A stretch of 64,000 nt of DNA from Candidatus Daviesbacteria bacterium (GCA_016183305.1 JACPEW010000018.1:2280-66279), one strand, 5' to 3'. Positions 35 through 40,351 are shown, counted from the first letter of the stretch. Notes: generated from the sequence alone by a model not told the origin. Numbers and translations are program-made.

Positions 35-114
35 GTCATTGCGAGCGCAGCGTAGCAATCTTGATTATTAAATAAAGATCACTACGGTCCGTCTGTGGCG
101 GACCTCGTGATGAC
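35..114. repeat. Palindromic element copy (intergenic)
   Basis: GTCATTGCGAGC...AATCTTGATT...CGTGATGAC. Confidence 0.65.
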
Positions 115-253: not shown

Positions 254-706
254 TTGCTTGAAAGAGGTTTCCTTTCAAGCTTCGCTTATAGTAACACAAA
301 GGTTCTAGACAGGAGTGCTCAACTTGAACTGAGAGATTATAATAGTTTTGTGATTTACTATGTTTATATTCTTAGAACTTCTTCTAATACTTTATATATT
401 GGACAAACAAATAATTTAGAAAAAAGGCTAAAAGAGCATAAGGAAAAGAAAGCAAAATCTGCTAAATATCTTAGATATTTTTCCTCTTTTCAACTAGTTT
501 ACTCAGAAACATATAATTCCCGGGCAGAAGCTTTGAAAAGAGAATATCAATTAAAGCAATGGCCAAAAGCTAAAAAAGAAGCTTTGTTAGTCAGTCAAGG
601 CGGGCAGTGTCTTCCTTGCCCAAAATCTCAAAGGTTTCTAAGCCTCAAAAAGAACAACCATCAGTTCAGGAAAATCCTTAAAATCTTATGCACTGTTCCA
701 GGATAA
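254..706 (+). CDS. GIY-YIG nuclease family protein (YhbQ/UPF0213-like)
   Basis: The translation contains YYVYILRTSSNTLYIGQTNNLEKRLKEH...AEALKREYQLKQW, which is a GIY-YIG domain layout. The domain begins near an in-frame GTG at 350, so the true start may be 350. Confidence 0.7.
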   Translation: MLERGFLSSFAYSNTKVLDRSAQLELRDYNSFVIYYVYILRTSSNTLYIGQTNNLEKRLKEHKEKKAKSAKYLRYFSSFQLVYSETYNSRAEALKREYQLKQWPKAKKEALLVSQGGQCLPCPKSQRFLSLKKNNHQFRKILKILCTVPG

Positions 707-4899: not shown

Positions 4900-6284
4900 C
4901 TTTTTGTCTTCTCCATTAAATATAATATTCTTTGGCTGTTTTTGATAGGACAAATTTTTTTGATCTGGAAAAATTCTTTAAAAGCTTCCTCAAAACCTGC
5001 TTTAGTATAGGCTGGGAAAATATCTTCCCTATTTTGCAATAAAATTTTAACTTGCGAATCCTCTTTTGGTATAAACTCAATTATTAAATATTTGCTTAGT
5101 TTAGAAAAGAGAGAGGCAATATAAGATAAAGGTATATTAGCAGAGATTGCTAAATGATGAACTAAAGCTAAGGCTAGGGTAACGTCAGCAGGTCCTCTTT
5201 GAAAAAGAGATAACCTTTCTTCATTTGCCCAACCTAAAGACGGAGTTGGATTTGTTAAATCAATAAATAAGGGCAAAATATTTGTTTCATGATCCTTTAT
5301 CAGTTGTTGATAGTTTTTTTCTAAAGCTCCTAAATCAAGATCAAAAGAAATAACTAAATCAGCAAATTGCTTAGCAATTCTAGAAAAATAACCGGTATTT
5401 GCCCCCAAGTCCCAAATAGTTTTTGATTTAATAGATTTTAAAAAGCCTTTAACAAGTTCTCCTTTTTGGGTTAACGAAGAAGATGTGTAGTTATTATTTT
5501 CTCCGCTATAATACTCAGACCATTGTGTGTCTTTTGTATTCCAAGACAAGCTTTTGATTACCCCTTCTAAATTATCCAGTAAACCCAAAAATGCTCTTTT
5601 ACTAAAGCTTTTTTGGATCCTTGCAGAGCTTAGTTTTTTTTGATGATATTTTTTCTGGCTGGCAGCATGAGCATGGATATGTAGCATGACCCCTGGTTTA
5701 AAATGAGAGCGGAAGGGCAGCAATTTTGAGGCTAAATCAAGAGGAATACCATTAATAAAAAAAGAACTTAGCCTATTAAGACGGAAGTCAGTTAAAGACA
5801 TTAAGGTAAGAGGTGCTAAAAAATGTTCCACAAATTGTTTATAAGCAATCCAAGGTTTGCCTTCTCCGTATTTTTCAAAAGAAAGAGTATCAATGAGAAT
5901 TGGTTTTCCTTTCAAAAATTGAATATTAAAAGCGCTGGCATCTTTTAAACTTAATCCATGCTCTAAAGCAATTTTCTGGATATTTAAGGTTAAGAAAGCA
6001 GCATCTTTTAGCATCCCAAAACACCATTCATAAGGATAAGAAATAAAAGGGATTTGTTTAGGCTTAATAATTTTGTAGGCTTCAGGCGCTGGGTTTTTTA
6101 AATCAATTTCCTGATGTTCTATCAGCAGGTTTGAGGAAACTAGTTTATCATATAGCCCGGAATTTATTAGTAACTGGTAGTTGTCCTGATAGCTTTTATT
6201 AATCTGGCGGTAGATTAATTCTTTAATAGAAAAAACAAAACCGCTTGGGTCTTTAAAAGATGCAGAAATCCTGTCATTTTTCAT
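4896..6284 (-). CDS. Class I SAM-dependent methyltransferase with N-terminal extension
   Basis: IWDLGANTGYFSRIA is a glycine-rich SAM motif, and the gene overlaps both flanking genes in operon fashion. Confidence 0.6.
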   Translation of the reverse strand: MKNDRISASFKDPSGFVFSIKELIYRQINKSYQDNYQLLINSGLYDKLVSSNLLIEHQEIDLKNPAPEAYKIIKPKQIPFISYPYEWCFGMLKDAAFLTLNIQKIALEHGLSLKDASAFNIQFLKGKPILIDTLSFEKYGEGKPWIAYKQFVEHFLAPLTLMSLTDFRLNRLSSFFINGIPLDLASKLLPFRSHFKPGVMLHIHAHAASQKKYHQKKLSSARIQKSFSKRAFLGLLDNLEGVIKSLSWNTKDTQWSEYYSGENNNYTSSSLTQKGELVKGFLKSIKSKTIWDLGANTGYFSRIAKQFADLVISFDLDLGALEKNYQQLIKDHETNILPLFIDLTNPTPSLGWANEERLSLFQRGPADVTLALALVHHLAISANIPLSYIASLFSKLSKYLIIEFIPKEDSQVKILLQNREDIFPAYTKAGFEEAFKEFFQIKKICPIKNSQRILYLMEKTKR

Positions 6285-8796: not shown

Positions 8797-8874
8797 GTCA
8801 TCTCGAGCGATTAGCGAGAGATCTTCCGGGCTTGGAAGATTCCTCACCCCGATTTAATCGGGGTTCGGAATGAC
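8797..8874. repeat. Palindromic element copy overlapping the tkt 3' end
   Basis: GTCATCTCGAGC...GAAGATTCCTCACCCCGATTTAATCGGGGTTCGGAATGAC. The tkt stop codon lies inside the element. Confidence 0.7.
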
Positions 8875-10718
8875 AACACAGTTTTAATAATACTCTCTTT
8901 AGAAATGCCTTCAAAATCCAGTAGTTCCTCTGGTTTACCACTACCAACTATTTTCCTGACTGCCAAAGAAATAACCCTGGGTGCCAATAGATTTTCACCC
9001 CCCAGGTGGAAAAGAGCGCTTCCTACTGCTTCAGCTATCCCTCCTTCCGGGAAATGATCCTCTACCACAATAATAGCTTTAGTTTCTTTGGCTGCTTTTT
9101 TTAAAGAAGCAGTATCTACTGGCTTAATGCTATATAAATCAATAACCCTAATTAAAATCCCTTCTTTTTTAAGCTCTTCGAAAGCTGCTAAAGCCTCATG
9201 CAGGGTTATTCCAGCTCCGACTACTGTTACTAGATCCTTAGAACTCTTTTTTAAGGTTTTGCTGCCACCTATTGGGAAATCTTCATCTGGTTTGTAAAGT
9301 ATTGGGGTATCTTTTCTGGTGGTACGGATGTAAACATTGCCCTCATGTTTTGCAGCCTCTTCGGTCAACTTTTCTGTAGATATAGCATCAGAAGGGTATA
9401 AAACAACACTGTTTAACATACTTCTAAACATTGCTATATCTTCCAAGCCCATTTGGGAAGGTCCATCTTCTCCTATGGAAACACCAGCATGGGAACCACA
9501 AACTTTAATATTAGCCTCAGAATACTGGCTCATCCTGATTTGGTCATGGGCCCGGGTTAAAAAAGCTGCAAAAGTAGAGATAAAGGGGATTTTCCCTCTT
9601 CTGGATAAGCCTAAGGCTGTTCCTGCCATATTCTGTTCGGCAATATACATTTCAAAAAAATGCTCAGGATAAGCTTTGCCAAATATTTCAGCATAAGTAG
9701 AATTTCCTACTTCTGCATCCAATACCACTATATTAGGATATTGGGGAAATATTCTTGCCAGAGCATTACCATAAGCCTTTCTAGTAGCTACTTGCTCTCC
9801 TTCTTGATAATTTACTTTTGAATTTTGACTTGTAGTTTTGACCTTTGACTTTTGACCTTTGACTTTTGTTGGCTTTTCCACCTTCCCTCTAATTTTCATA
9901 TCAATATCCCCTAATTCTTGTTTTGCTTTTTCCAGCTCTTCTGTTTTTAAGGCTTTCCCGTGCCAGCCATCCTTGTTTTGCAAAAATGACACCCCTTTAC
10001 CTTTAATTGTTTTGGCAATAATCATTGTTGGTAAACCCTTGGTATTAAAAGCTTCAGTATATGCTTTAGCAATATCACTAAATGAGTGGCCATCAATGGG
10101 AATAGCGTTCCAGCCAAATGCTTTGGCCTTTTTCTCATAAGCTTTTAAATCATGGCCATACATAGTTTTCCCCCGTTGGCCTAAACCATTAACATCTATA
10201 ATGCCTATTAAGTTATCTAATTTATAATGAGAAGCAAGTTGCAAAGCTTCCCAAACAGATCCTTCTGTCATTTCACTATCTCCCAGTAAAACAAAAGTTT
10301 TATATGGCAGCTTATCTAAATACTTAGCATTTAAGGCCATTCCTAAACCAATAGAAAGTCCCTGGCCCAAAGATCCCGTAGCTGCTTCTGCGTAAGGGAA
10401 AACTGGCCTGGGATGACCCTCTAATGCGCTTCCAATTTTCCGGTAAGTAGCAAGCTCCTCATCATTAATTTTTCCAGCCAAATAAAAAAGGGAATAGAAT
10501 AAAGGAGAGGCATGGCCTTTAGAAAAGATTAACCTGTCGTTATTAGGATTACTAGGATTGTTTAAATCAGCTCTAAAAAACCCTCCAAAAAGGAGGGAAA
10601 TCATTAGGTCTGTGGCTGAAAGAGAGGATGTGGGGTGGCCAGAGCCTGCTTGGCTGCTCATCAGCAAACTTAAGTAACGGCTGGCTTTTGCAAGTTTTAC
10701 TAAATACTGCCCACTCAT
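8844..10718 (-). CDS. tkt: Transketolase, N- and C-terminal halves fused
   Basis: SGHPTSSLS, GHASPLFY, GSLGQGLS and LLGDSEMTEGSVWEA are TPP-binding motifs. The C-terminal half starts at ATRKAYGNAL. A low-complexity linker, KVKGQKSKVKTTSQNSKV, joins the halves. Confidence 0.9.
   Translation of the reverse strand: MSGQYLVKLAKASRYLSLLMSSQAGSGHPTSSLSATDLMISLLFGGFFRADLNNPSNPNNDRLIFSKGHASPLFYSLFYLAGKINDEELATYRKIGSALEGHPRPVFPYAEAATGSLGQGLSIGLGMALNAKYLDKLPYKTFVLLGDSEMTEGSVWEALQLASHYKLDNLIGIIDVNGLGQRGKTMYGHDLKAYEKKAKAFGWNAIPIDGHSFSDIAKAYTEAFNTKGLPTMIIAKTIKGKGVSFLQNKDGWHGKALKTEELEKAKQELGDIDMKIRGKVEKPTKVKGQKSKVKTTSQNSKVNYQEGEQVATRKAYGNALARIFPQYPNIVVLDAEVGNSTYAEIFGKAYPEHFFEMYIAEQNMAGTALGLSRRGKIPFISTFAAFLTRAHDQIRMSQYSEANIKVCGSHAGVSIGEDGPSQMGLEDIAMFRSMLNSVVLYPSDAISTEKLTEEAAKHEGNVYIRTTRKDTPILYKPDEDFPIGGSKTLKKSSKDLVTVVGAGITLHEALAAFEELKKEGILIRVIDLYSIKPVDTASLKKAAKETKAIIVVEDHFPEGGIAEAVGSALFHLGGENLLAPRVISLAVRKIVGSGKPEELLDFEGISKESIIKTVLSFRTPIKSG
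9811..9870. repeat. TTTGAC-type tandem repeat forming the tkt linker
   Basis: tttacttttgaattttgacttgtagttttgacctttgacttttgacctttgacttttg. Confidence 0.7.
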
Positions 10719-15801: not shown

Positions 15802-16206
15802 ATGAAAGAACTACGTTCCCACCTTAAAGGTGGGAAGCTAAATAAAAAACTGACACTTGAGCAATATAATATTTGTTTTCTAAAGGGTACTGAGCCTCCT
15901 TTTTCTGGAAAATATACTAATAATCATGAGCCAGGGATGTATGCTTGTGTAGTTTGTGGTACTAAACTTTTTTCTTCTGATAGTAAGTTTGACTCAGAAA
16001 CTGGCTGGCCTTCTTTTGATAGACCTTTTGCTAACAAGAATATTTCTTATTCTGAAGATTATTCTATGGGCATGAGAAGGATTGAGGTTATGTGTAAAAA
16101 ATGTGGTTCCCACTTAGGCCATGTGTTTGATGATGGCCCAACTTCTACTGGCAAAAGATTCTGTATCAATTCCCTAGCCTTAGATTTCATTGCGAATCAA
16201 GACTAA
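15802..16206 (+). CDS. msrB: Peptide-methionine (R)-S-oxide reductase
   Basis: CVVCGTKLF...GWPSF...CKKCGSHLGHVFDDGP (Zn CxxC pairs and catalytic region). The start is set at MKELRSH. Confidence 0.9.
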   Translation: MKELRSHLKGGKLNKKLTLEQYNICFLKGTEPPFSGKYTNNHEPGMYACVVCGTKLFSSDSKFDSETGWPSFDRPFANKNISYSEDYSMGMRRIEVMCKKCGSHLGHVFDDGPTSTGKRFCINSLALDFIANQD

Positions 16207-17036
16207 CGAAGTGTCATTCCCAAAAAAGAAATTCCAGCTTGAAATAAAAGGTATAATCCAAAAACAATACTTAATAATCCTGAAGCTGTTACCAGGTAGT
16301 GGTTTATAATTTTACTTTCCCTTTTTAAGAGGATAATTGAGGCCCCTATTCCTAAAGTTAGAATCATCATGCCAGTAATGATACCAATATGGAAAACAAG
16401 CAGGTAAATTATTGATAAAACTGTATTTTGTATGGTGCTTAGAATTAACAAAGCTATGGCAGTGCTGCCTGCTAAACCATGGATGAGCCCAATTACCAGT
16501 GGTCTGATAGTTTGAAATAATCCTAAATGATGAAAATTGCCAGCTATGGATTTCATAGTTGTCATTCCGAGCGAGGCCAGAGGCCGAGTGTAGGAATCTT
16601 GATTAAGAGAGATTGTCACGCCCTTCGGGCTCGCAATGACAGAATGTAAGTGGAGATGGGAATGTTGGTGGCCTTGGTTATCTAAATGTGAATGCTTATG
16701 GATAGTTACTGGTGTAAGTTTGTCTTGTATTTTTGAAGATATGCCAGATAAATTTAAAACTCCTAAGATAATTAACATTAGACCTACAACAAGCTCCATA
16801 ATTTGTTCCAAGCCTGAAGGTACTACAAAAGAGAATATAATAATTGGGATTGCTACTAAAGTAACTGTGATAGAATGCCCTATTCCCCACAAGGCACCTA
16901 TTAAAGCAGTATTTAAAATCCCTTTCTTTTGTTTAGCAATAATAGTGGTGATTGCTACAATATGGTCAGGATCTGTGGCATGACGCATTCCTAAAAGAAA
17001 ACTTAAACTTAAAATACTAATTATTTGCGCATACAT
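16203..17036 (-). CDS. Nickel/cobalt transporter-like membrane protein (HX4DH motif) carrying a palindromic-element insert
   Basis: RHATDPDHIVAI signature, a His-rich loop (HKHSHLDNQGHQHSHLHLH) and IHGLAGS. The repeat at 16561..16640 is read through in frame. Confidence 0.65.
   Translation of the reverse strand: MYAQIISILSLSFLLGMRHATDPDHIVAITTIIAKQKKGILNTALIGALWGIGHSITVTLVAIPIIIFSFVVPSGLEQIMELVVGLMLIILGVLNLSGISSKIQDKLTPVTIHKHSHLDNQGHQHSHLHLHSVIASPKGVTISLNQDSYTRPLASLGMTTMKSIAGNFHHLGLFQTIRPLVIGLIHGLAGSTAIALLILSTIQNTVLSIIYLLVFHIGIITGMMILTLGIGASIILLKRESKIINHYLVTASGLLSIVFGLYLLFQAGISFLGMTLR
16561..16640. repeat. Palindromic element copy inside the transporter CDS
   Basis: GTCATTCCGAGCGAGGCC...GGAATCTTGATT...GGGCTCGCAATGAC. 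Confidence 0.75.
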
Positions 17037-19268: not shown

Positions 19269-20177
19269 ATGGATATTTTATCAATAGTTTTAATTGTGGC
19301 AGGTTTGGTTTTATTTGAGACTATCTCTTCAGTTGATAATGCAGTGATTAATGCTGAAGTTTTATCCACCATGAGCAAAAGGGCCAGAAGATGGTTTCTT
19401 TTGTGGGGGCTTTTACTGGCTGTTTTTTTACTCAGAGGTTTATTGCCATGGGGTATTCTTTGGGCTACTAATCCAGGGCTAGGTCCAATTGGAGCATTTG
19501 GAGCAGCTTTAAGTTCAGATCCTAAAGTGGTAGAGGCAATTGAGAAATCCTCCCCTATTTTACTGTCAGGAGGAGGAATATTTTTGATATTTCTTTTTTT
19601 CCACTGGTTATTTTTGGAACCAAAAAACTACGGATTAAAAAGTGAAAGGTTTTTCCATTCCCAAGGGGTGTGGTTTTATGCTGTGGTCTCAATTATTTTA
19701 GCTGTGATAGTCTGGTTTGCCCTGCAGGAAAACCCTTTCATGGCCTTTGGAGCAGTAGTAGGATCAACAGCCTTTTTTATAACTCATGGGTTTAAGGAAA
19801 ATGCGGCAGCAGAGGAAAAGAAACTTCTTTCTACCAGCAGAAGTGATTTTAGTAAGATTCTGTATTTGGAAGTGATAGATGCCACCTTTTCTATAGATGG
19901 AGTGATCGGAGCATTTGCTTTTACCCTCTCTGTACCGCTTATTTTATTAGGTAATGGTATTGGGGCTTTTGTTGTCAGGCAGTTAACTATTGGTAATATT
20001 GACAGGATTAAAAAATATATTTATTTAAAAAACGGGGCAATGTATTCTATCCTTTCCTTGGGAATAATCATGATTTTAGATAGTTTTGGTTTTCATATTC
20101 CATCCTGGTTTACTCCTGTTGTGACAGCAATAATTGTGGGCTATTTCTTACTCAAATCCAGAAAAGCTATTGCTTAG
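19269..20177 (+). CDS. DUF475/TerC-like integral membrane protein
   Basis: ETISSVDNAVINAEVL and a second FSIDGVIGAF repeat. Confidence 0.55.
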   Translation: MDILSIVLIVAGLVLFETISSVDNAVINAEVLSTMSKRARRWFLLWGLLLAVFLLRGLLPWGILWATNPGLGPIGAFGAALSSDPKVVEAIEKSSPILLSGGGIFLIFLFFHWLFLEPKNYGLKSERFFHSQGVWFYAVVSIILAVIVWFALQENPFMAFGAVVGSTAFFITHGFKENAAAEEKKLLSTSRSDFSKILYLEVIDATFSIDGVIGAFAFTLSVPLILLGNGIGAFVVRQLTIGNIDRIKKYIYLKNGAMYSILSLGIIMILDSFGFHIPSWFTPVVTAIIVGYFLLKSRKAIA

Positions 20178-21639
20178 TTAGCACCACCATAAAATTATCC
20201 AAATAAACTGCTTTCCAGGTATTATCTTGGGCAACAGAAGCTAAAAAGGACCTGCCCCAAGGGGTTTGGTCTGTAATAGAAAAAATTATAGTTTTAAAAT
20301 TATATTGTTTTTCTAGATTTTTAAATTGGGAATAATCTGCCTGGGTTGGTATATATACTTCAGAAAAGAATTTTGCAGGATAAGCCTCTGGTCTGCCATC
20401 CACAAAAACCTGGTATTTGGGATATCCCCGGTAAATAATATAACTGCCTATATCAAAATTATTATAGATAGGTCCTGGTAAATTATTACTTAAGGTAAAA
20501 TCTAAAGCTTTTTTACCACTTTCCACAAACCTTAAATTGGGAAATTGGTTTGTTTTAAAATTATTAAGAGTAGTTATGATAAGAAGTATAGCTGTGATTA
20601 CTGTGGCAGTTTTGGTTAACCAATTTGATTTTAAAGGACCAAAGTTTTGTAAAACAGCTGGTAAGGACAAAAACACCAGATATGGAAAGCTTCTGACATT
20701 TAATGAAGCTAAAGCAGCACCAAAAGCAGCCAGTAAAATATTCTTAATCAATCCTTTTTTGTCATCCTGGACGATTAGTAAAGGATCCCTAGATTTTTTA
20801 ATCTTGAGATTCCTCACTATATCCGGAATGACGACTAGTATTGATAACAAGATAATTCCTAAGCTTATCTTTACCCAAATAAAATTAGGATTCTGGAAGT
20901 CAATACTTTCTAGTAGAAAGATGGTTTGGTTTTCTACAATGGTATAGCCATAGTTTTTAGTCACATTAAGAGGATAAAGAAATCCAGCTAAGCCATTTGG
21001 GTTAACTAAACTTGTTAATACTGATAGTATAAGAATAATAACTGATATCTTTAGCTTCCCACTTCCGATGTGGGAATGTAGTTTTTGGTAGGTTAAGTCA
21101 ATTAGAAAAATGGCCTGTAAGATTAGACCTACAAAAAAGTATATATGAGTATTAACCCAGATTAATTGGATAAAGGGTAATAAAAACACCAGCTTTGTAG
21201 GCCCTCTTAAATATTTTTCCAAAATATAACAAGTGCTAACAGTAAACAAAAAGCTAAAAAATTCTGGCCTTAGTTCTATTCTTTCCCTTAAAGTATGGAA
21301 AAAAATAAAACCTATAGGTAAAAGCAGAATAGAGTTATTTTTTGGGACCATTTTTAATATTAACCAAACTGAAGTTAGATAAATAACTAACTTGAAGACT
21401 AATAGAAAGTTAAGATTAATCTGGCTTACTAAATAAGTCCAAACTTCAAATAACCAATGGGTATTAATAAAAGGAAAATTAGGGTTAGTATAGGAAAAAA
21501 GGTTGGTTGTAGGAACAGCCTTTGTCTGCCAAATTACCTCCCCAAGTTTTAAATGTCTCCCTAAATCCTGGTCAAAAGAATAATCTGGCTTAAATATAAA
21601 AGAAAAAACAAAGAAAGTTAGGAGAATTTTAACCCGCAT
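20167..21639 (-). CDS. Polytopic membrane protein with C-terminal soluble domain (possible GT-C-like), carrying a palindromic-element insert
   Basis: About 10 hydrophobic helices. The repeat at 20761..20832 encodes VIPDIVRNLKIKKSRDPLLIVQDD in frame. Confidence 0.4.
   Translation of the reverse strand: MRVKILLTFFVFSFIFKPDYSFDQDLGRHLKLGEVIWQTKAVPTTNLFSYTNPNFPFINTHWLFEVWTYLVSQINLNFLLVFKLVIYLTSVWLILKMVPKNNSILLLPIGFIFFHTLRERIELRPEFFSFLFTVSTCYILEKYLRGPTKLVFLLPFIQLIWVNTHIYFFVGLILQAIFLIDLTYQKLHSHIGSGKLKISVIILILSVLTSLVNPNGLAGFLYPLNVTKNYGYTIVENQTIFLLESIDFQNPNFIWVKISLGIILLSILVVIPDIVRNLKIKKSRDPLLIVQDDKKGLIKNILLAAFGAALASLNVRSFPYLVFLSLPAVLQNFGPLKSNWLTKTATVITAILLIITTLNNFKTNQFPNLRFVESGKKALDFTLSNNLPGPIYNNFDIGSYIIYRGYPKYQVFVDGRPEAYPAKFFSEVYIPTQADYSQFKNLEKQYNFKTIIFSITDQTPWGRSFLASVAQDNTWKAVYLDNFMVVLTKQ
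20761..20832. repeat. Palindromic element copy inside a membrane-protein CDS (72 nt)
   Basis: GTCATCCTGGACG...AATCTTGAGATTCCTCAC...TCCGGAATGAC. Confidence 0.75.
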
Positions 21640-38744: not shown

Positions 38745-40067
38745 TTAAATTTTAAACCTTCTGTCCGAAAGAAAGGGGTTAGGTTGTCTCCATATTGAGG
38801 AGGAACCTAATAATATTCCCCTTTGCAAGGTAAATTCTCCATATTTATTATTAATTTGATCCAAGGCTTTGGTAATTATTTCTCTTTTCTTAACTTCTAC
38901 TAAAAAGCTTAAATTTTGAGGAGTTTGGGATTTTAAATTAGAAATAGAAACTCCAATCATTCTAATTTTTTCACCACTCCAGATCTGATTAAAAATTTTC
39001 CAAGCTGCATTAAAGATTTCCAGCCCATCACTAGTCCATAAAATAGTTTGTTGCATTCCATTGCTTTCAAAATCAACCTCTCTGTACCAGCAATGGATTG
39101 TTTTAGCTGTTAATTTTTTGGCCCGGAGTTTTCTGGCTATTAATTCTGTGAGTTTTAATAATATTTGCTTAATTTCTAATAAGTTATCAGTATCATGATC
39201 AATAGTATGCCTGTGGCCAATTGATTTAACTTCTTCTTTTTCATAGAAAGGTACAACAGGAGAATAATCTATGCCCCTGGCCATATTGTAAAGAGTTTGG
39301 CCATAACTTTTAAAAGAAGCAAGTAAGGCTTTTAAAGGAGCTTTTCTTAAGGTTTTAAAATCAAAAATTCCTAAGTTATTTAGTCTTTTTTTAATCCTGG
39401 ATCCAATTCCACAAATGTCATCTAAGGCAATTTTATCTAAAACTTTTATAGCAGTTTCTTGATCAGGAATCACTACTAAACCATCTAGTTTTTGTAAAGA
39501 ACCAGCCAGTTTTGCCATTAATTTGTTATACGAGATACCAATAGAACAGGTAATATATTCCCCTATTTCTGATTTGATCCTTCTTTTAATCTCTAAGGCT
39601 ATATTTTTTGTCATTGCGGGAAACGAATCTTCGAGTGACGAAGCAATCCTTTTCTTTGTCATCCCAGACTTGATCTGGGATCCATATAAATAATTGTCTA
39701 TATAGATTCCCACTTTCGTGGGAATGACAGGAGAAGGCATTTCTAAAAATGCTTCATCTATAGAAAACACTTCTAGGTATGGGCTGTAGTCTTTTAGGAT
39801 GGTCAAAAAACGCTTAGTTGTCTCTGAATATTTATCAGAGTCTCCAGAAACAAGAATAATTTGTGGGCAAAGTTTTTGAGCCTCCCAAATCTGCATACCA
39901 GTTTTTACCCCAAACCTTTTAGCCTCTACAGAAGCTGCCCCTAAAACAGTTCTTTTCATCCTGTCTCCACCTGTTATTCCAATTGGTTTGCCACGGAGTC
40001 TTGGATTGGCTTGTTGTTCTACTGTGGCAAAATAGCTATTAAAATCAATATGTAAAATAACTCTCAT
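38745..40067 (-). CDS. dinB: DNA polymerase IV (Y-family) carrying a 40-codon palindromic-element insert
   Basis: ILHIDFNSYFATVE, SIDEAFLE and SIGISYNKLMAKLA are present. The insert lies at 39610..39728, between the DEAF motif and the next conserved helix. The start is set at MRVILH. Confidence 0.85.
   Translation of the reverse strand: MRVILHIDFNSYFATVEQQANPRLRGKPIGITGGDRMKRTVLGAASVEAKRFGVKTGMQIWEAQKLCPQIILVSGDSDKYSETTKRFLTILKDYSPYLEVFSIDEAFLEMPSPVIPTKVGIYIDNYLYGSQIKSGMTKKRIASSLEDSFPAMTKNIALEIKRRIKSEIGEYITCSIGISYNKLMAKLAGSLQKLDGLVVIPDQETAIKVLDKIALDDICGIGSRIKKRLNNLGIFDFKTLRKAPLKALLASFKSYGQTLYNMARGIDYSPVVPFYEKEEVKSIGHRHTIDHDTDNLLEIKQILLKLTELIARKLRAKKLTAKTIHCWYREVDFESNGMQQTILWTSDGLEIFNAAWKIFNQIWSGEKIRMIGVSISNLKSQTPQNLSFLVEVKKREIITKALDQINNKYGEFTLQRGILLGSSSIWRQPNPFLSDRRFKI
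39610..39728. repeat. Composite (about 1.5 copies) palindromic element inside dinB
   Basis: GTCATTGCGGGAAACGAATCTTCGAG...GTCATCCCAGACTTGATCTGGGATCC...CCCACTTTCGTGGGAATGAC. Confidence 0.75.
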
Positions 40068-40074
40068 ATTTATT

Positions 40075-40105
40075 GTCATTCTTCACTCTCCGGGTTCAGG
40101 ATGAC
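40075..40105. repeat. Minimal 31-nt palindromic element
   Basis: GTCATTCTTCACTCTCCGGGTTCAGGATGAC, located between dinB and the upstream ORF. Confidence 0.55.
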
Positions 40106-40108
40106 AAT

Positions 40109-40351
40109 TCACATCTCTTCTACAGCTTCCAAAGACCACTTCATTCTATTGACATCAAACTTTAATCTATAAAAGTTATCTCCAGAACTGATAGAAAAGT
40201 GATAAAATAGCCAAGCGCCATTTTTAGAAGTGTGAATCAGGTTGATTTTGTCTACTTTAATTTGTCTACCGCGCCAGTAAAATGAATAAGGCTGAATTAT
40301 GTTGTTTTTGAAAAAGACCCAAACATTAATAGTTTCTTGTATTTCTAGCAT
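40109..40351 (-). CDS. Hypothetical small protein upstream of dinB
   Basis: 80 aa with no recognised motif. It is co-oriented with dinB. Confidence 0.4.
   Translation of the reverse strand: MLEIQETINVWVFFKNNIIQPYSFYWRGRQIKVDKINLIHTSKNGAWLFYHFSISSGDNFYRLKFDVNRMKWSLEAVEEM

Follow-up and report, generated by a model that had tools for sequence, protein, structure and literature searches.

Among described repeats, the closest to those discussed here are the NTS hairpins of Neisseria, consensus CGTCATTCCCGCGMAVGCGGGAATCYRG, which have been generalized to 'Ssn-related motifs' (SRM), the targets of small GIY-YIG single-strand nucleases, Ssn (Chenal et al. 2025, PMC11893778). SRM and NTS flank ssnA, a single-domain GIY-YIG gene encoding 94 amino acids (aa). 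Ssn proteins bind the motif solely when it is single-stranded and make their cut a few bases upstream of it; cleavage rests mainly on the three nucleotides (nt) that precede the palindrome, and binding on the C that follows it. NTS that flank a gene reduce its transformation rate in Neisseria, and 2% of NTS copies in N. meningitidis are intragenic; Rickettsia is listed as SRM-rich; and mobility of these repeats is put forward as a hypothesis only (PMC11893778). Here we describe repeats of this architecture inside dinB, the gene for DNA polymerase IV, in a member of the Patescibacteria, or Candidate Phyla Radiation (CPR). The DNA is a stretch of 64,000 nt, about 35% G+C, from Candidatus Daviesbacteria bacterium (GCA_016183305.1, JACPEW010000018.1:2280-66279), referred to below as the window.

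Palindromic repeats that lie in frame in functional protein genes are known from Rickettsia, where they are called Rickettsia palindromic elements (RPE; Ogata et al. 2000 and 2002, as summarized in PMC10969869). Going by that summary, the Daviesbacteria repeats resemble RPE in that both are short palindromes, in frame in unrelated functional genes, that add a peptide to the product and are missing from orthologs; they differ in the phylum of the host and in size, with units of 25–40 nt and composites of 70–120 nt here, against about 150 nt for RPE. The RPE domain models of NCBIfam returned no match to the insert peptides at E <= 10—a weak test with peptides as short as these—and, given that Rickettsia is SRM-rich, a relationship between RPE and SRM is possible. 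The REP, BIME and REPIN repeats, with their RAYT proteins, offer a second parallel: they too occur as single hairpins and inverted doublets, their associated gene is flanked by two inverted repeats and its enzyme recognizes single-stranded DNA hairpins. The associated protein here is a GIY-YIG nuclease, however, whereas RAYT is a Y1 (IS200/IS605-like) transposase, and REPs are almost always extragenic. No Y1 transposase was found bracketed by the units, the bracketed gene being that of the GIY-YIG nuclease, though not all ORFs (open reading frames) of the window were scanned for RAYT. The dinB insert is an RPE-like in-frame insertion in a further lineage and a clear instance of something already known, not a system of a new kind.

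The insert in DNA polymerase IV

The product of dinB is a Y-family polymerase with IMS, IMS_HHH_1 and IMS_C domains (Pfam), that is, with the palm/fingers, thumb and little-finger regions of DinB and the catalytic Asp and Asp–Glu. The ORF found mechanically (38745..40079, minus strand, 444 aa) opens with an ATG at 40079 that is part of the ATGAC end of an upstream hairpin unit, a false upstream start; the NCBI protein (P0001, DNA polymerase IV, Candidatus Daviesbacteria bacterium, 100% identity) starts four codons downstream, at 40067. The Pfam IMS match takes up 182 residues of the protein for 146 positions of the profile. Matches to solved structures are split in two (query residues 6–114 with 3–109 of PDB entry 7yll, and 158–422 with 117–377), and the same break appears in alignments with the structures of Dpo4 and E. 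coli DinB, leaving about 36 surplus residues immediately past SIDEAFLEM. None of the NCBIfam DinB models reaches its curated cut-off (best 290.7 against 381, and 237.1 against 256), and the insert divides each match in two. Repeat inserts of this type can therefore deprive a protein of its automatic name.

When the gene is compared codon by codon with three orthologous loci, the insert proves to span V118..T157 of the 444-aa ORF, residues 114–153 in the numbering of the 440-aa protein, between the catalytic SIDEAF strand and the helix that follows it. Predicted junction peptides include EMPSPVIPTK and FPAMTKNIALEIK, and the boundaries are identical, at the codon level, in the query and in the related loci L002 and L003. 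A preliminary description of the window had placed a 40-codon composite insert at 39610–39728, right after the catalytic motif, and had judged its frame intact. The split matches and the ortholog comparison agree with it on exactly 40 codons. The interval it gave corresponds to the base with a GTCAT...ATGAC composite, the additional base 39609 completes the frame, and no stop codon occurs in the frame used. Its figure of about 1.5 elements also holds, the insert consisting of three hairpin units that make up one inverted doublet and one solo unit.

Each of the three units, a, b and c (Table 1), is built as GTC, a palindrome and a C, a form that eight further units in the window share. Units a and b are inverted with respect to each other and form a 71-nt doublet (39658–39728). 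Read along the coding strand, unit a is followed by a 22-nt A+T-rich spacer and the inverted unit b, GATCCCAGATCAAGTCTGGGATGAC, then by a 9-nt linker, AAAGAAAAG, the inverted unit c, GATTGCTTCGTCACTCGAAGATTCGTTTCCCGCAATGAC, and a last A. Folded as single-stranded DNA, the 120 nt reach -20.9 kcal/mol, against -10.3 +/- 2.3 for shuffled sequences (z = -4.6), and none of 200 shuffles folds as well. Two of the insert's three sense frames are open, and no antisense frame is; among shuffled local stretches of 40 codons, about 7% are free of stops. A scan of 39300–40300 against Rfam gave only chance-level matches (E > 0.1), hence no known RNA family accounts for the hairpins. Intron-like or other removal of the insert at the RNA level was considered and rejected: nothing supports it, and the insert keeps the frame open.

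Table 1. Features of the window that relate to the insert and its repeats
Feature	Position	Strand	Description
dinB (DNA polymerase IV)	38745..40067	minus	440 aa, NCBI annotation
In-frame insert	39609..39728	minus	120 nt = 40 codons; encodes VIPTKVGIYIDNYLYGSQIKSGMTKKRIASSLEDSFPAMT
Unit a	39705..39728	minus	GTCATTCCCACGAAAGTGGGAATC = GTC-ATTCCCAC-GAAA-GTGGGAAT-C; perfect 8-bp stem; NTS-like
Unit b	39658..39682	plus	GTCATCCCAGACTTGATCTGGGATC = GTC-ATCCCAGA-CTTGA-TCTGGGAT-C; perfect 8-bp stem
Unit c	39610..39648	plus	GTC-ATTGC...GCAAT-C; 5-bp outer stem, 5-bp inner stem (CTTCG/CGAAG hairpin); solo 'half element'
Degenerate solo unit	40075..40105	plus	GTCAT...ATGAC, 31 nt; takes up most of the 41 nt that separate dinB from the upstream 92-aa gene
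80-nt doublet	16561..16640	not assigned	In frame in NicO-like nickel/cobalt transporter gene (16203..17036, minus)
72-nt doublet	20761..20832	not assigned	In frame in 490-aa membrane protein gene (20167..21639, minus)
78-nt doublet	8797..8874	not assigned	Overlaps 3' end of transketolase gene (8844..10718, minus)
80-nt doublet	35..114	not assigned	Intergenic, about 140 nt upstream of small GIY-YIG ORF 254..706

Hairpin units and nuclease cassettes

Judged by their sequences, the units of the insert are hairpin repeats of the NTS/SRM type, linked to Ssn GIY-YIG nucleases. All three retain the GTC before the palindrome and the C after it. Unit a agrees with the NTS consensus at 24 of 28 positions in a manual alignment, and two of the four differences are the two halves of one compensated base pair. 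Unit b differs by a single compensated base pair from a unit in the dinB gene of locus L009, and the L009 unit fits the published SRM pattern. Unit c, apart from a 7-nt insertion, agrees at 30 of 32 positions with the left terminus of a nuclease cassette in locus L036.

Two relatives connect the repeats with a gene. Directly upstream of dinB, L002 (2630–2994) and L036 (5514–5888) have GIY-YIG genes that are bracketed exactly by inverted GTCAT hairpins. The gap between the 92-aa gene and dinB (40068–40108 in the window) thus holds a complete Ssn-like cassette in L002 and L036, and only the 31-nt degenerate unit in the window. The bracketed nuclease, of about 95 aa, is a single GIY-YIG domain, as ssnA is in Neisseria, and the spacing of Tyr, Tyr and Glu in the L036 protein (Y7, Y18, E65) is, by manual indexing, that of SsnA (Y6, Y17, E64). 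L002 has a second, gene-less copy inside dinB, a 117-nt insert that lies about 350 nt downstream of the end of the cassette and agrees with it at 40 of 46 positions in the right terminus and 23 of 34 in the left. It looks like a gene-less derivative of its neighbor. Terminal inverted repeats together with a longer, gene-carrying partner that has the same ends are what characterize a miniature inverted-repeat transposable element, and the L002 insert and cassette are such a pair.

The association extends well beyond these species. We gathered 80 metagenome loci that encode this GIY-YIG subfamily; with 53–64% identity to the L036 protein and 30–61% G+C, they represent many lineages. On the 5' side, 45 of 78 loci have a unit in the correct orientation no more than about 120 nt from the start codon; on the 3' side, 43 of 80 have one no more than about 110 nt from the stop codon; and 33 of 80 have units on both sides, whereas shuffled flanks yield none or one (and none on both sides). 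Two main types of terminus are found, GTCATTGCGAG...GAAGCAATC, which is the commonest, and GTCATTCCCGCGAAAGCGGGAATCCAG; a canonical NTS, by the published pattern, accompanies the gene in 7 of the 80 loci. That GIY-YIG genes of this kind are associated with flanking units has already been published (Chenal et al. 2025, PMC11893778).

Other small GIY-YIG genes occur in the same neighborhoods. Counting L002 and L036, the gap upstream of dinB holds a GIY-YIG cassette in four species; those of L014 (~5640–5990) and L024 (~130–550) belong to a different subfamily and have other inverted ends, CTTCGACT...GTTCGCTCGAAC. A third small GIY-YIG group lies beside or within tRNA genes (L038 ~5330–5750, L002 261–640, L018 7608–8000, L028 16919–17209, and also in L019, L016, L021 and L003). 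The 5' portion of the tRNA is duplicated just upstream of the start of the nuclease gene (for example GGTGGTCGTAGC... on both sides in L038), which suggests that members of this group inserted into tRNA genes.

Four further doublets in the window, of 72–80 nt, share the form GTCAT-hairpin ... hairpin-ATGAC. Their terminal inverted repeats agree at 9–12 of 12 positions, with the consensus GTCATYSCGAGCG. At three of the six element sites in the window the element is in frame and wholly intragenic, and at a fourth it makes up a gene end, compared with the 2% of NTS copies that are intragenic in N. meningitidis. Because the same repeat is in frame in other genes of the window, in-frame residence is a property of the genome and not of dinB in particular. 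In the NicO-like gene, a relative at 84% nucleotide identity (P0122/L163) is without exactly 84 nt (28 aa) at the position of the 80-nt element, which points to insertion in the window's lineage after the two split; loss from the relative is formally possible. In the 490-aa membrane protein gene L163 has a diverged copy at the same position, indicating an insertion older than the split. The transketolase gene takes its stop codon and roughly the ten codons before it (...RTPIKSG) from the doublet (8844–8874), and the repeat has in this way remodeled the C-terminus of the enzyme. The hallmarks of RPE—a palindromic repeat, in frame in unrelated genes, missing from orthologs—are found in dinB, the NicO-like gene, the 490-aa membrane protein gene and the transketolase C-terminus.

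A strict census of doublets over 828 kilobases, requiring at least 9 matches in a 12-nt terminal repeat, gave 19 candidates against 4–10 in shuffles and missed the query's own doublet; the definition GTC + 5-nt arm + C was used in its place. The pentamer GTCAT/ATGAC occurs 62 times in the window, against about 136 in mononucleotide shuffles, and is under-represented by that model.

The post-catalytic loop and its occupants

Insertions at this place in DinB are common among the relatives. Length variation in 120 Daviesbacteria DinB proteins, 62–73% identical to the query, is concentrated at two loops. At the post-catalytic loop at least eight extra residues are present in 45 of the 120 orthologs, and the rest are without them; at the second, in the little finger, 46 of 121 have 8–36 extra residues, and the query has none. 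When 45 species-level dinB loci are compared as DNA, the stretch that SIDE and the IK.RI helix motif delimit is between 21 (CFLEGTVEIAKEIK) and 73 residues long. Many of the relatives lack an insert altogether, the shortest orthologs reading SIDECFLEGTVEIAKEIK, and 44 of the 45 genes are uninterrupted. The exception is L046 (10001–11276), whose dinB is frameshifted by a deletion at about residues 55–75, away from the insert, and in which a GTCAT-type loop insert is still recognizable; this gene is either a pseudogene or an assembly error.

Occupants of the GTCAT type yield peptides such as VIA.../VIP...AMT or ...DD, and at least four other, unrelated types of repeat-derived peptide are found in the same loop. 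The GTCAT begins at an identical nucleotide offset in the query, L002, L003/L050, L006, L016, L019 and L046. In a neighbor-joining tree the query groups with L011 and L016, and GTCAT-type occupants fall into at least four separate clades. L011 and L016 both have two-unit elements at the site with stem sequences that differ from the query's. According to the preliminary description, its interpretation would fail if the segment proved to be a conserved, lineage-specific loop lacking the element termini in relatives; the different GTCAT...ATGAC doublets of L011 and L016 show otherwise. Hairpins that are perfect at this divergence imply renewal from other copies, hairpin-templated correction, or selection. 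The loop is, in short, a hot spot of insertion.

The little-finger loop lies after a CWYR motif (about residues 330–335 of 440 in the query, 39060–39080 in the window), and its extra residues also look hairpin-derived, as in FHLRGEEMRLHLGGV; GTCAT-type peptides occur there in L021 (VIPAKAGIH...RDDN) and L044 (VIARSEATWQS). L005, L007, L012 and many other contigs with a DinB of the Daviesbacteria type (60–70% identity, placed in one neighbor-joining tree with named Daviesbacteria loci) bear the title 'uncultured Gammaproteobacteria bacterium', and these titles are probably wrong.

Several lines of evidence, all indirect but in agreement, bear on what the 40 residues do to the enzyme. Alignment of the orthologs shows D8, D104 and E105, the catalytic residues, to be invariant, together with about 130 other positions, and synteny with a downstream epimerase gene is retained. 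In human Pol kappa the same loop, which follows the strand of catalytic Asp198–Glu199 and precedes the next palm helix, exceeds that of bacterial DinB by about 80 residues, the parts of the query aligning to 7nv0 up to residue 204 and again from 295. Residues 225–281 of Pol kappa are disordered in the structure, and the ends of the gap are close together (PMC8526622). The Pol kappa loop is compatible with full activity; it differs in being a conserved feature of eukaryotes that has no origin in repeat elements. An AlphaFold model of the query, built from 40 close orthologs and used for confidence in the insert but not for geometry, gives a predicted local distance difference test (pLDDT) below 50 over residues 114–140 of the insert and of roughly 46–50 over the remainder. 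Most likely, then, translation of the 40 residues yields a flexible loop at the protein surface, and the enzyme that carries them is likely to be active. The preliminary description had left the choice between a tolerated surface loop and an inactive gene; the intact orthologs, the invariant catalytic residues, the loop of Pol kappa and the low-confidence model of the insert favor the former over the latter.

Origin of the insert

The best explanation for the insert, and one we regard as probable, is that it consists of three copies of an Ssn-linked hairpin repeat, kept in a permissive loop of an active DinB. The unit has the NTS/SRM architecture, GTC followed by a palindrome that starts and ends with AT and then by C. 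Gene-less doublets of 70–120 nt, scattered through the genome, behave like miniature derivatives of the nuclease cassette. Such a doublet reads 5'-GTCAT...ATGAC-3' on both strands and presents a stop codon (TGA) in only one frame, at its right end, so that it often keeps the frame of its host gene open. Copies with a length divisible by three, in structurally permissive places, would be the ones retained, and in DinB that place is the loop of the palm domain between the catalytic Asp–Glu strand and the next helix. On this account the ancestor of the query, L011 and L016 most likely gained a doublet made up of units a and c, and the query's lineage probably then gained unit b between them.

A number of observations weigh against this explanation. 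The published degenerate SRM pattern, HGTCWYN(0-2)YYVSBRHN(0-5)WNVSBRGN(0-2)RNCYNB, has no match in the window (shuffles average 0.1), units a and b each failing it by one stem pair, A:T in place of G:C; and the terminus that is commonest at the metagenome loci, the GTCATTGCGAG type, falls wholly outside it. No Ssn-type gene was seen within the 64-kilobase window, the GIY-YIG ORF at 254..706 (plus strand, domain at residues 35–108) not being bracketed by units and having, by manual inspection, a spacing of conserved residues unlike that of SsnA. In the NicO-like gene the element is 80 nt long while the occupied and empty sites differ by 84 nt, and no target-site duplication can be resolved there, the flanks being too diverged at 84% identity. 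Stem sequences vary widely among the copies of this genome, which is unusual for a family that has transposed recently. And the AlphaFold model is mediocre as a whole, with a mean pLDDT of 67.9 and a predicted template modeling score (pTM) of 0.40, and does not establish the geometry of the loop.

One alternative is that the insert is kept for a use at the level of DNA or RNA, for instance as a site of Ssn cleavage that keeps recombination or transformation at dinB in check, or as a structure in the mRNA that affects translation or stability. The perfect 8-bp stems, the preservation in all three units of the positions needed for Ssn binding and cutting, and the effect of flanking NTS on transformation in Neisseria suit this view, as do the inserts of sister species, which differ in their stems yet form hairpins, the difference between unit b and the L009 unit being a compensated pair. 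But many orthologs do without any insert, and the presence of unrelated repeat families in the same loop is more in keeping with a permissive site than with a specific function. Hairpin-templated correction, or replacement by other copies, could also keep the stems perfect. On balance we think such a use unlikely.

We think it less likely still that the insertion inactivated dinB and that the gene is a young pseudogene, open by chance. The insert does lie nine residues past the catalytic Asp–Glu, the NCBIfam scores are all below their cut-offs, and the frameshifted ortholog of L046 means that this lineage can lose dinB. The deletion in L046, however, affects another part of the gene and not the insert. 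The rest of the window's gene is undamaged and retains all the invariant residues of the ortholog alignment; L011 and L016 keep an element at the site in intact genes whose proteins are about 70% identical, which suggests persistence under purifying selection; Pol kappa functions with a larger insert in the same loop; and the chance that a 40-codon stretch free of selection is open is only about 7%.

Two further readings have very little to recommend them. It is hardly credible that the segment is a functional loop of DinB, conserved and specific to the lineage, and looks like a repeat only by chance: length variation here is common in Y-family polymerases, Pol kappa among them, but the segment is absent from, or entirely different in, most orthologs, and the same type of unit occurs at five other places in the window and forms the termini of nuclease cassettes in relatives. 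That a repeat was collapsed into dinB during assembly is just as improbable, even though the contig was assembled from a metagenome and repeats are easily misassembled, because the insert is in frame with colinear dinB sequence on both flanks and the same arrangement recurs independently in many assemblies from different projects.

Mobility and significance

If the three units are Ssn-linked repeats in a tolerated loop, the question of how they came to be there follows. That the Ssn nuclease itself moves the units is more speculative than anything proposed above. The GTCAT doublets without a gene may be non-autonomous mobile elements moved by Ssn, in a GIY-YIG transposition or homing system analogous to RAYT and REP; we offer this by analogy, as a tentative proposal that is rather less likely to be right than wrong. 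The termini shared by the L002 copy and cassette, the recent NicO insertion, and hairpins that are perfect despite differing stems are consistent with it. Whatever the agent, the NicO insert missing from a relative, together with the cassette and miniature of L002, is evidence that the repeats are, or recently were, mobile.

What is new here is the host lineage, Daviesbacteria of the CPR, the high share of intragenic copies and the catalytic-domain loop that is occupied time and again. The findings link the work of 2025 on Ssn nucleases and their hairpin motifs with that on 'selfish DNA inside protein-coding genes' (Rickettsia RPE, 2000), and they extend both to the Candidate Phyla Radiation. 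For annotation, the consequences are scores below curated cut-offs, false start codons and spurious small ORFs. The catalytic-domain loop of DinB and its little-finger loop, which accept up to about 50 residues from several families of repeats, amount to a natural experiment, of use in protein engineering as well as in annotation. If Ssn does move these elements, such a system would, in the small genomes of CPR bacteria, keep sowing and renewing peptide loops, in frame, where core enzymes permit them, and loops such as the post-catalytic one of DinB would be hypervariable as a result.

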